The notes under the pieces were generated by a model. It did no database searches, had not been told where the DNA came from, and was given only the letters and a program-made list of their open reading frames with translations. Below, in pieces: positions 33,305 through 36,640 of a DNA stretch of 64,000 bases. Within the stretch, counting starts at the first letter, position 1. Each line of letters starts with the position of its first letter. The position numbers and the translations under genes are program-made. Source of the DNA: Escherichia coli (GTDB lineage: Bacteria; Pseudomonadota; Gammaproteobacteria; Enterobacterales; Enterobacteriaceae); the NCBI RefSeq assembly GCF_013122565.1, contig NZ_CP053258.1. The stretch is one strand, 5' to 3'.

Positions 33305-33494
33305 CCCGCTCTACCTTCATCATGTCCCGGCAGTTTTTTAACTGACTTTCGTTTGAAAACTGGCGTTTTTCCAAAACTGGATTACAAATAAATATATAAA
33401 AAAACAATGCGTTTAGCCGCCGTTAATTTCATGTAAGTCATGTTGTTCCTTTTATTTAACCGCGGACTCCGCTGTTAACCGGAGGATATGCATC

Positions 33495-35480
33495 ATGAAA
33501 ACCGTTAGGGAGTCCACAACGTTGTACAACTTTCTCGGATCGCACAATTCATACTGGCGGTTGACGGAAAGCAGCGATGTTTTGCGCTTTTCTACCACCG
33601 AAACCACAGAACCTGAACGTATGTTGCAGTTATCTGCCGAACAGGCTGCTCGCATCAGGGAAATGACGGTCATCACCTCCAGCCTGATGATGAGTCTGAC
33701 CGTCGATGAAAGCGATCTTTCTGTGCATCTGGTAGGACGAAAAATCAATAAACGGGAATGGGCTGGCAACGCGTCTGCATGGCATGACACACCGGCGGTT
33801 GCTCGTGATTTATCACACGGGCTTTCCTTTGCTGAGCAGGTAGTTTCTGAAGCACATTCCGCAATAGTCATTCTCGACAGCCGGGGGAATATTCAACGCT
33901 TCAATCGGTTATGTGAAGATTACACAGGGTTGAAAGAACACGACGTCATTGGGCAAAGCGTGTTTAAACTGTTTATGAGCCGTCGTGAAGCTGCGGCATC
34001 CAGGCGCAATAACCGTGTATTTTTTCGAAGCGGCAATGCATATGAAGTCGAACTGTGGATACCAACACGTAAAGGCCAGCGGCTGTTTCTGTTTCGCAAT
34101 AAATTTGTCCACAGCGGCAGTGGCAAAAACGAGATTTTTTTAATCTGTTCAGGCACCGATATTACCGAAGAGCGCCGCGCTCAGGAGCGACTGCGTATTC
34201 TGGCAAATACCGACAGTATCACCGGACTGCCGAATCGTAACGCAATGCAGGAGTTAATCGATCACGCCATTAATCAGGCAGATAACAATAAAGTTGGGGT
34301 TGTGTATCTTGATTTGGATAATTTTAAAAAGGTCAATGACGCCTATGGGCATTTGTTTGGTGACCAGCTATTACGCGACGTGTCATTGGCTATTTTAAGC
34401 TGTCTCGAACATGACCAGGTGTTGGCGCGTCCAGGTGGCGATGAGTTTCTGGTACTCGCATCCAATACCTCACAAAGCGCGCTGGAAGCAATGGCATCAC
34501 GAATTTTGACTCGCTTACGGCTCCCCTTTCGTATTGGTTTAATTGAAGTTTATACCAGCTGTTCAGTAGGTATTTCGCTCTCTCCCGAACATGGTTCGGA
34601 CAGCGCGACTATTATTCGTCACGCCGACACAGCAATGTACACAGCGAAGGAAGGCGGACGAGGACAATTTTGCGTTTTTACTCCAGAAATGAATCAGCGG
34701 GTATTTGAATATCTCTGGCTGGATACCAACTTGCGTAAAGCACTGGAAAACGATCAGTTGGTTATTCACTATCAACCGAAAATCACCTGGCGTGGCGAAG
34801 TGCGCAGTCTGGAAGCACTAGTACGTTGGCAGTCACCTGAACGTGGGTTGATTCCACCGTTGGACTTCATTTCCTACGCCGAAGAGTCAGGGCTAATTGT
34901 GCCTTTAGGCCGTTGGGTGATTCTCGATGTCGTACGCCAGGTGGCAAAGTGGCGGGATAAAGGTATTAACCTGCGAGTGGCGGTAAATATTTCTGCACGT
35001 CAGCTCGCCGATCAAACCATTTTCACCGCCCTGAAACAGGTTCTTCAGGAACTCAATTTTGAATACTGCCCTATCGATGTTGAACTGACAGAGAGTTGTC
35101 TGATTGAGAATGATGAACTGGCACTGTCTGTTATTCAACAATTTAGCCAACTAGGTGCGCAAGTGCATCTGGACGATTTTGGTACCGGCTACTCTTCACT
35201 TTCGCAACTGGCGCGCTTTCCGATCGATGCCATCAAACTTGACCAGGTTTTTGTTCGAGATATTCACAAACAGCCTGTCTCGCAGTCACTGGTCCGGGCG
35301 ATCGTCGCTGTGGCCCAGGCATTGAATCTTCAGGTGATCGCCGAAGGTGTAGAGAGTGCAAAGGAAGATGCTTTTTTAACCAAGAACGGGATCAATGAGC
35401 GGCAAGGATTTTTGTTTGCCAAACCGATGCCCGCCGTCGCCTTCGAACGCTGGTATAAACGCTATCTGAAGCGCGCATAA
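33495..35480 (+). CDS. pdeR: c-di-GMP phosphodiesterase, PAS-GGDEF-EAL
   Basis: 661-aa ORF with degenerate GGDEF (PGGDEF) and EAL (EALVRW) motifs. Confidence 0.95.
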   Translation: MKTVRESTTLYNFLGSHNSYWRLTESSDVLRFSTTETTEPERMLQLSAEQAARIREMTVITSSLMMSLTVDESDLSVHLVGRKINKREWAGNASAWHDTPAVARDLSHGLSFAEQVVSEAHSAIVILDSRGNIQRFNRLCEDYTGLKEHDVIGQSVFKLFMSRREAAASRRNNRVFFRSGNAYEVELWIPTRKGQRLFLFRNKFVHSGSGKNEIFLICSGTDITEERRAQERLRILANTDSITGLPNRNAMQELIDHAINQADNNKVGVVYLDLDNFKKVNDAYGHLFGDQLLRDVSLAILSCLEHDQVLARPGGDEFLVLASNTSQSALEAMASRILTRLRLPFRIGLIEVYTSCSVGISLSPEHGSDSATIIRHADTAMYTAKEGGRGQFCVFTPEMNQRVFEYLWLDTNLRKALENDQLVIHYQPKITWRGEVRSLEALVRWQSPERGLIPPLDFISYAEESGLIVPLGRWVILDVVRQVAKWRDKGINLRVAVNISARQLADQTIFTALKQVLQELNFEYCPIDVELTESCLIENDELALSVIQQFSQLGAQVHLDDFGTGYSSLSQLARFPIDAIKLDQVFVRDIHKQPVSQSLVRAIVAVAQALNLQVIAEGVESAKEDAFLTKNGINERQGFLFAKPMPAVAFERWYKRYLKRA

Positions 35481-35626
35481 GTAGATGAATATATATACCT
35501 AGCGCTATATCCCGTCATTATATATCGTATTCCTGGATGATAATTAGCCGTTGCTGTTAAACACTTCTCTTTTAGCGGCAATTTTTGCATTATTCATTTT
35601 CCACTTTTGCTATAAGGATGTCCTTG

Positions 35627-35800
35627 ATGTCTGAATTTGATGCCCAGCGCGTTGCCGAACGTATTGATATTGTGTTAGATATCCTTGTGGCAGGCGATTA
35701 CCACTCTGCGATCCATAATCTCGAGATTCTTAAAGCAGAACTCTTGCGCCAGGTTGCTGAATCTACGCCAGACATCCCGAAGGCACCGTGGGAGATTTAA
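35627..35800 (+). CDS. yciZ: small protein, UPF0509 family
   Basis: 57-aa [30 protein letters not shown] after trimming track ORF to internal Met. Confidence 0.7.
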
Positions 35801-35890
35801 CAATCGTGCCTTCAGGTTTTCCTATTTGAGGATGCCCGGCGCGTCAGTATTTTTTTTATTTAGTATTATAACGTTATAAGAATTACAGCG

Positions 35891-36640
35891 ATGAATTCCC
35901 GACAACAAACTATTCTACAGATGGTCATTGACCAGGGTCAGGTTAGCGTAACCGATCTGGCAAAAGCCACTGGAGTTTCTGAAGTTACCATTCGCCAGGA
36001 TCTCAACACCCTCGAAAAACTGAATTACCTCCGCCGTGCACATGGTTTTGCAGTTTCGCTTGATAGTGATGACGTCGAAACCCGGATGATGAGCAACTAT
36101 ACGCTGAAGCGTGAACTCGCCGAGTTTGCCGCGTCACTGGTTCAACCGGGCGAAACCATCTTTATCGAAAATGGCAGCAGCAATGCCCTGCTCGCCCGGA
36201 CTCTTGGCGAACAGAAGAAAAATGTCACTATCATCACAGTCAGCAGCTACATTGCGCATTTGCTGAAAGACGCGCCTTGTGAAGTCATTTTGCTCGGTGG
36301 CGTGTACCAGAAAAAAAGCGAAAGTATGGTTGGCCCTTTGACACGCCAGTGCATCCAACAGGTGCATTTCAGCAAAGCATTTATTGGTATTGATGGCTGG
36401 CAACCTGAAACTGGATTTACCGGTCGCGATATGATGCGTACCGATGTGGTCAATGCCGTGCTGGAAAAAGAGTGCGAAGCGATAGTCCTGACTGACAGCT
36501 CGAAATTTGGTGCTGTACATTCATACTCCATCGGCCCCGTTGAGCGATTCAATCGCGTGATTACCGATTCGAAAATACGCGCCAGCGATTTGATGCATCT
36601 TGAGCACAGTAAACTCACCGTTCACGTCGTTGACATTTAA
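35891..36640 (+). CDS. yciT: DeoR-family transcriptional regulator
   Basis: 249-aa ORF; N-terminal HTH, C-terminal sugar-phosphate-binding domain. Confidence 0.9.

Follow-up and report, generated by a model that had tools for sequence, protein, structure and literature searches.

The small-protein gene yciZ of Escherichia coli and its conserved neighbor, the DeoR-type repressor gene yciT

Described relatives of yciZ

The YciZ family (Pfam PF23675, "YciZ-like"; NCBIfam NF010179/PRK13658; UPF0509) comprises short proteins that are encoded 5′ of yciT and share a helical core and a C-terminal PWEI. The gene considered here lies in a window—the whole stretch of 64 kb of DNA that was analyzed—that contains the rnb–pdeR–yciZ–yciT–osmB–yciH–pyrF region of E. 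coli. It shows no essential difference from the family: position, core, and C-terminus are alike, and the linker is three residues shorter in Escherichia, resulting in 57 instead of 60 amino acids. The match to PF23675 covers residues 1 to 57 of 57 with an E value of 2e-44 and 149.6 bits (cut-off 27), and the NCBIfam equivalog model NF010179 scores 126.1 bits (cut-off 87). A 551-nt query around yciZ finds matches in 5422 of 5426 complete E. coli genomes, and the E. coli RefSeq records listed carry the annotation "protein YciZ" beneath the match. Pfam, NCBIfam, and RefSeq, hence, agree with the identification as the small-protein gene yciZ that an earlier note had made from the sequence. The same note regarded the gene as lying below most size cut-offs, but it was not overlooked, as the RefSeq annotation and the two family models attest. 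YciZ is among the small proteins identified via chromosomal epitope tagging and is noted as positive in a tetracycline ribosome-profiling screen (VanOrsdel et al. 2018), so that the translation signal proposed as a check on the ORF had already been published. As a discovery, the gene is ordinary: it is annotated, family-defined, and experimentally detected.

The DeoL–DeoT pair of E. coli consists of the identical two genes. Shimada 2014 lists deoT (= yciT) as the gene adjoining yciZ, and the small protein now bears the name "protein YciZ/DeoL" in NCBI and UniRef. These names tie the pair to the 2006 DeoT paper (Elgrably-Weiss et al. 2006, FEMS Microbiol Lett 254:141), in which DeoT is presented as a regulator with multiple targets. 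A literature search found no paper naming both deoL and deoT. The 2006 work is said to have reported that DeoL is needed for DeoT function. The earlier statement that the function of YciZ is unknown is, hence, nearly the state of the art, except that the YciZ/DeoL name in the databases ties the protein to DeoT.

Small helical co-regulators of DNA-binding proteins are represented by Hha and Cnu, which act with H-NS. By analogy, YciZ would be a helical protein of approximately 60 to 70 amino acids that lacks a DNA-binding domain and influences a repressor through direct binding—the latter being what is proposed for YciZ. Like leader peptides and translationally coupled upstream ORFs, yciZ is short and directly precedes the gene of a regulator, in some genera at a very small distance. 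However, the YciZ peptide is strongly selected, and the cis linkage is broken in Buttiauxella. HpdC, BssB/C, and GrcA are small accessory subunits of glycyl radical enzymes. YciZ is likewise small, and its gene borders a cluster for a glycyl radical enzyme in one genus, but the protein carries no Cys, Fe–S, or glycyl-radical motif, and its locus in E. coli is separate from ybiW.

The yciZ reading frame and its protein

35627–35800, + strand: yciZ (deoL) coding sequence, as judged by the ORF, PF23675, NF010179, the RefSeq annotation "protein YciZ", and start and frame in 53 of 53 loci
35614–35618, + strand: AAGGA, a Shine–Dalgarno-like motif 8 nt 5′ of the yciZ ATG, by direct reading of the sequence

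The yciZ ORF consists of 57 codons from the ATG at 35627–35629 to the TAA at 35798–35800. An AGGA, AGGG, or AAGG motif lies at equal distance from the start in other genera, and the start region is structurally unremarkable (RNA-fold z of +0.62). The ATG aligned with 35627 is the start of the ORF in 53 of 53 other-species loci, and an in-frame start upstream of it is absent in many of them. In the mechanical ORF list, the frame is present just as 35585–35800, a 71-residue ORF with a TTG start. The TTG at 35585 was rejected as the start of yciZ because the aligned ATG is universal and many loci have no upstream in-frame start. The ATG at 35618, which would yield 60 residues, was rejected as well because it has no Shine–Dalgarno motif and is not conserved; the length of 60 residues in other genera is due to a longer linker and not to the N-terminus. 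The earlier note is borne out on these points: its 57-codon ORF with an acceptable start has exactly these coordinates and AAGGA 8 nt upstream, its longer ORF with a poor start is the TTG frame of 71 residues, and the family models identify both genes between which it had placed yciZ, namely pdeR (33495–35480) and yciT (35891–36640).

The comparative set consists of 53 loci with one genome per species and includes Escherichia, Citrobacter, Salmonella, Enterobacter, Klebsiella, Raoultella, Kluyvera, Leclercia, Lelliottia, Pluralibacter, Pseudocitrobacter, Pseudescherichia, Siccibacter, Superficieibacter, and Atlantibacter. Start codon and frame of yciZ are kept in all 53 species loci, that is, across at least 15 enterobacterial genera; the earlier note had named a frame not conserved in related species as grounds for giving up the gene, and the opposite is found. 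Synonymous sites are saturated with a mean pS of 0.70, and pN amounts to 0.11 for residues 1 to 41, 0.10 for the last seven residues (PKAPWEI), and 0.55 for the linker. The median dN/dS is 0.13 for the gene and 0.07 for the core. Mean identity to E. coli among 48 non-Escherichia sequences is 89% for the core residues 9 to 40, 88% for the tail, and 18% for the linker. The family alignment features 24 invariant columns, and the window protein carries all invariant columns—R12, I13, V16, L17, I19–V21, G23, D24, S27–I29, N31–L35, E38, L39, P54, W55, and E56—as well as the conserved core RIDxVLDILVxGDxxSAIxNLEILKxEL and the C-terminal PWE[I/V]. This pattern of conservation and selection is far beyond chance; yciZ is a real gene that is translated and whose protein sequence is under purifying selection.

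A profile search of 1.84 billion representative proteins retrieved the YciZ family as 47 clusters at 50% identity, all of them short, and no domain or enzyme fusion occurs among the 47 representatives. Even the most divergent members retain a terminal PWEI or PWEV, a length of 60 residues is usual—with the Escherichia linker three residues shorter—and every nameable organism belongs to the Enterobacteriaceae. No paralogue of YciZ was found in the window or at the E. coli ybi locus, and Rfam gave no relevant match between 35000 and 37500. An origin of yciZ in a defense system or a phage was rejected because the protein has no match in PADLOC or PHROGs.

YciZ is a cytoplasmic, acidic protein of 6.4 kDa with a pI of 4.5 and a net charge of about −6 that contains neither a cysteine nor a glycyl-radical motif. 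The AF2 model based on the family alignment features a confident two-helix hairpin, formed by residues 6–22 and 25–46 with pLDDT values of 96 to 98 in the helices, and a floppy tail of low confidence. The architecture is, thus, a helical hairpin followed by a freely varying linker and the invariant PWE[I/V] tail at the C-terminus. Both helices carry hydrophobic residues on more than one face, which suggests burial in an oligomer or against a partner. Fold and sequence searches against solved structures returned nothing specific to YciZ.

Flanking elements and neighboring genes

35564–35593, + strand: conserved bipartite element CTTCTCTTTT-N7-ATTTTTGCATTAT with near-invariant blocks across genera
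35800–35857, + strand: Escherichia-specific hairpin (35800–35848) followed by a T-run, −15.9 kcal/mol, z of −2.56, with a match in the scan for terminator-like sequences
35462–35590, − strand: ymiD, an antisense ORF of 42 residues, annotated in RefSeq
35891–36640, + strand: yciT (deoT), encoding a DeoR-type repressor, the invariant downstream neighbor; HTH_DeoR and DeoRC domains, NCBIfam YciT model at 488 bits (cut-off 450)
33495–35480, + strand: pdeR, the upstream neighbor, whose linkage is not conserved; EAL, GGDEF, and PAS domains, NCBIfam PRK10060 at 1335.8 bits

The element upstream of yciZ, CTTCTCTTTT-N7-WTTTYWGCATYAT (35564–35593), has a single match in the 64-kb window at up to three mismatches, with 0 expected by chance. 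Exactly one exact match occurs in 51 of 64 loci and always ends approximately 34 nt before the yciZ ATG. The element can be read as a weak promoter with TTCTCT (35565–35570) and CATTAT (35588–35593) separated by 17 nt; a consensus promoter scan did not call this pair. RNAalifold finds 0 conserved pairs in the 5′ region of yciZ, and the element contains no YciT box. It is regarded here as a putative promoter or operator of yciZ. A sigma-54 reading of its GGCA...TTGCA portion was rejected because the GG–GC spacing is wrong and variable and the GG is not conserved; of the FNR, CRP, Fur, NsrR, RpoH, and RpoE consensus sequences, compared by eye, none fits. RpoS-holoenzyme SELEX yielded a strong peak approximately 240 nt upstream of yciZ, and yciT is preferentially transcribed by the RpoS holoenzyme in vitro. 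In the table of differentially expressed genes of Gao 2021, yciZ (b4596) is the top up-regulated gene in the yfeC deletion, with a log2 fold change of 6.4 at a baseMean of only 7.6, and no YfeC ChIP-exo site is listed near yciZ in that study.

Between yciZ and yciT, RpoD SELEX places a promoter for deoT that consists of TTGAGG (35826–35831) and TATTTT (35848–35853) separated by 16 nt (Shimada 2014) and that overlaps the hairpin and T-run at 35800–35857. Outside Escherichia, this spacer is conserved neither in length, which ranges from 5 to 216 nt, nor in sequence.

The start of ymiD lies inside the conserved element upstream of yciZ, its ATG being the reverse complement of the CAT at 35588–35590; at its 3′ end, ymiD covers the final 19 nt of pdeR. 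Searches with tblastn recover ymiD at 74 to 100% identity in three of four E. coli loci and in a contig that resembles E. coli but is labeled as an Actinomycetes MAG; they give no match in the remaining E. coli locus (L002), in E. albertii, or in any other genus. In two of the other genera, translation by eye shows the antisense frame to be open for only about 16 to 22 codons. The gene has the look of a young ORF confined to its lineage. Mass spectrometry supports ymiD only weakly, and ExcludonFinder lists it in a divergent excludon with yciZ.

In each of the 53 species loci, the next gene downstream of yciZ is yciT in the same orientation, 5 to 216 nt away; the gap in the window is 90 nt. This linkage is conserved as for an accessory protein, with exceptions where yciT is lost or decayed. 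The exceptions count against YciZ as a partner of YciT: yciZ is intact while yciT is absent in locus L059 (placed approximately near Cedecea/Dryocola), fragmented together with pdeR in L063 and L055, which look like a decaying genome, and truncated at 145 residues in Citrobacter amalonaticus (L012). The upstream gene pdeR is absent from the yciZ locus in Klebsiella, Raoultella, L059, and L064—a divergent lineage with the order rnb–yciZ–yciT—and lies approximately 1 kb away from yciZ in Enterobacter-type loci. It was not found in 12 of 54 loci, a few of which hold too little upstream sequence to judge. Gene order across the family, thus, makes yciT rather than pdeR the conserved partner of yciZ. 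The biofilm and curli assays that had been suggested are founded on the pdeR neighborhood, a linkage that is not conserved, whereas yciT is always adjacent.

The YciT regulon and possible roles of YciZ

Buttiauxella brennerae and a second Buttiauxella-type assembly carry the pair at the same chromosomal locus as E. coli (rnb...pyrF) in the order rnb-pdeR-...-yciZ> <fsa >ybiY >ybiW >yciT >osmB <yciH <pyrF. The block of fsa, ybiY, and ybiW between yciZ and yciT (10001–15160 in L060/L061) is colinear with E. coli fsa–ybiY–ybiW at 73% nucleotide identity over its full length, and the DeoR gene beyond it passes the NCBIfam YciT model with 494.8 (cut-off 450). Buttiauxella yciZ, convergent with fsa and 4.2 kb from yciT, has kept both its sequence and the element in front of it—evidence in favor of a product that acts in trans. 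In E. coli, fsa–ybiY–ybiW occupies a separate locus between moeB and ybiV–ybiU, with the ybi cluster flanked by moeB and ybiT. The Buttiauxella order implies that the yciZ/yciT pair belongs functionally with the fsa–ybiY–ybiW pathway.

YbiW is a glycyl radical enzyme that cleaves 1,5-anhydroglucitol-6-phosphate in an anaerobic pathway. The fsa–ybiY–ybiW genes are the strongest published YciT targets in E. coli: ChIP-exo gives YciT signal-to-noise values of 45 at ybiY and 24 at ybiV, and deletion of yciT raises ybiY by 7.7, ybiU by 7.0, fsaA by 1.8, and ybiW by more than 3 on a log2 scale. In addition, a preprint combining massively parallel reporters with DNA chromatography and mass spectrometry concludes that YciT represses ybiYW at the ybiY promoter. 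Together with the gene order of Buttiauxella, these later data point to the ybi/fsaA cluster as the core YciT regulon.

A 14-nt box, ACTTTCATTCGAAA, occurs upstream of E. coli ybiY, ybiV, and ybiU and in the fsa–ybiY spacer of Buttiauxella. Three copies of ACTTTYATTCGAAA lie in the E. coli ybi locus (L062 3573, 7021, and 8043), upstream of ybiY/fsa, ybiV, and ybiU, respectively; because these positions agree with the published ChIP-exo signals at ybiY and ybiV as well as with the set of genes released from repression when yciT is deleted, ACTTTCATTCGAAA is likely a YciT operator, with the status of a candidate read from sequence. Autoregulation of YciT via this box was rejected since none of the loci has a copy close to yciZ or yciT. 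Within the window, the sole copy within two mismatches of ACTTTCATTCGAAA is ACTTTCGTTTGAAA at 33345–33358 (+ strand) in the rnb–pdeR spacer. It presumably falls on YciT ChIP-exo site #17 of Gao 2021, labeled "gmr/pdeR", with a signal-to-noise value of 9.7; the coordinate conversion was cross-checked against the osmB–yciT peak. Only some E. coli loci, and no other genus, have this box upstream of pdeR, so that any link between YciT and pdeR is recent and probably minor. The same spacer contains a RefSeq-annotated hypothetical protein of 34 residues, WP_000221855.1, at approximately 33337–33441 on the − strand (938–1042 in L001), which overlaps the YciT-box-like site.

In the preferred reading, for which the chances stand about even, YciZ/DeoL is a trans-acting protein that works together with YciT/DeoT, the DeoR-type repressor, on the ybi/fsaA regulon. 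With a promoter of its own, yciZ would be the leading gene of a yciZ–yciT unit, and its product would serve YciT as an accessory partner, either as a co-repressor or as an anti-repressor. The main job of YciT would be to repress the genes for anaerobic cleavage of 1,5-anhydroglucitol-6-phosphate, ybiY–ybiW–ybiV–ybiU and fsaA. The hydrophobic helices of YciZ may provide the interface to an oligomer or a partner, and the C-terminal tail may be another, short motif for docking. In the AF2 prediction for a YciT–(G4S)6–YciZ fusion—computed as a monomer only and from a shallow alignment with 26 paired sequences—the YciZ helices have pLDDT values of 70 to 78, the tail has 33, and the pTM is 0.58. Given this drop in pLDDT, no docking is predicted, which counts against YciZ as a partner. 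So do two published results, in that yciZ is not among the genes changed when yciT is deleted, and binding of YciT to its targets was seen in ChIP-exo and DNA pull-down with YciZ unmentioned; the lack of a YciT-box-like site near yciZ counts against it as well. A more far-reaching version is held only tentatively and is on balance doubtful: YciZ/DeoL would be an obligate subunit of YciT, with the PWE[I/V]-COOH tail and the hydrophobic hairpin switching YciT and thereby gating 1,5-anhydroglucitol catabolism, and with the CTTCTCTTTT...TGCATCAT element as the input site of a regulator or sigma factor. To our knowledge, no other DeoR-family regulator depends on a dedicated micro-protein.

Alternatively, yciZ might work in cis only, as a leader ORF whose translation rather than its product sets yciT expression via coupling or via attenuation at the hairpin and T-run. 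The gap to yciT measures only 5 to 18 nt in several genera, where the conserved TGGGAG of the PWE codons can act as the Shine–Dalgarno motif of yciT; a hairpin and a T-run separate the two genes in E. coli; and, as a guess, the "L" in deoL may mean leader. However, the peptide of such a leader should vary freely, and here the amino acid sequence is selected (pN of 0.11 versus pS of 0.70, 24 invariant columns). A spacer of 5 to 216 nt without conserved length or sequence, the broken co-linearity in Buttiauxella—with yciZ 4.2 kb from yciT and convergent with fsa—and the accumulation of stable tagged YciZ protein likewise speak against a cis-only role, which is improbable. The idea that the ORF is open by chance or was annotated in error appeals to its shortness and to the mechanical caller, which reports only the longer TTG-start frame; contradicted by the family models, the conservation, the codon-level selection, and the published detection, it is already refuted, and its probability is negligible.

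YciZ might, in turn, serve the 1,5-anhydroglucitol/glycyl-radical pathway itself, for example as a small subunit or chaperone of YbiW, YbiY, or FsaA, or have another role independent of YciT, with the linkage to yciT reflecting nothing but a shared regulon. Its gene borders the fsa–ybiYW cluster in Buttiauxella and persists where yciT is lost or decayed, the AF2 fusion with YciT gave no docking, and several glycyl radical enzymes do have small accessory subunits. Yet yciZ adjoins yciT in 53 of 53 other species, the E. coli ybi cluster lies elsewhere on the chromosome, between moeB and ybiT, and no paralogue of yciZ accompanies it, YciZ has neither cysteines nor a glycyl-radical motif, and no enzyme fusion is found among the 47 family representatives, which leaves such a role unlikely. 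A part for YciZ in a PdeR/c-di-GMP/curli switch is far less probable still. It can draw on the adjacency of yciZ and pdeR in E. coli, on ExcludonFinder, which lists pdeR–ymiD–yciZ as a non-contiguous operon, and on the weak YciT ChIP-exo site (signal-to-noise 9.7) with its box-like sequence upstream of E. coli pdeR, but the locus lacks pdeR in Klebsiella, Raoultella, L059, and L064 and has it approximately 1 kb off elsewhere, the box upstream of it is confined to some E. coli loci, and no link between YciZ and c-di-GMP was found in sequence or literature.

New here are the conservation of start and frame of yciZ across genera, the invariant linkage to yciT, and the insertion of fsa–ybiY–ybiW in Buttiauxella. 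The comparative analysis redirects work on yciZ toward yciT and the anaerobic utilization of 1,5-anhydroglucitol (YbiW/FsaA) and away from pdeR and curli. The LI-Detector study (PMC9431181) contains the observation that yciZ appears disrupted in a Keio-collection strain, though it was never a Keio target; phenotypes of neighboring Keio deletions may, hence, include the loss of yciZ, and yciT deletions or Keio-derived strains that also hit yciZ may have been misinterpreted. Should YciT turn out to require YciZ as its partner, a conserved "y-gene" micro-protein would gain a function, and the control of a DeoR-type repressor of a gut-relevant sugar-alcohol pathway would be explained. YciZ would then be a clean addition to the few small proteins that modulate transcription factors.
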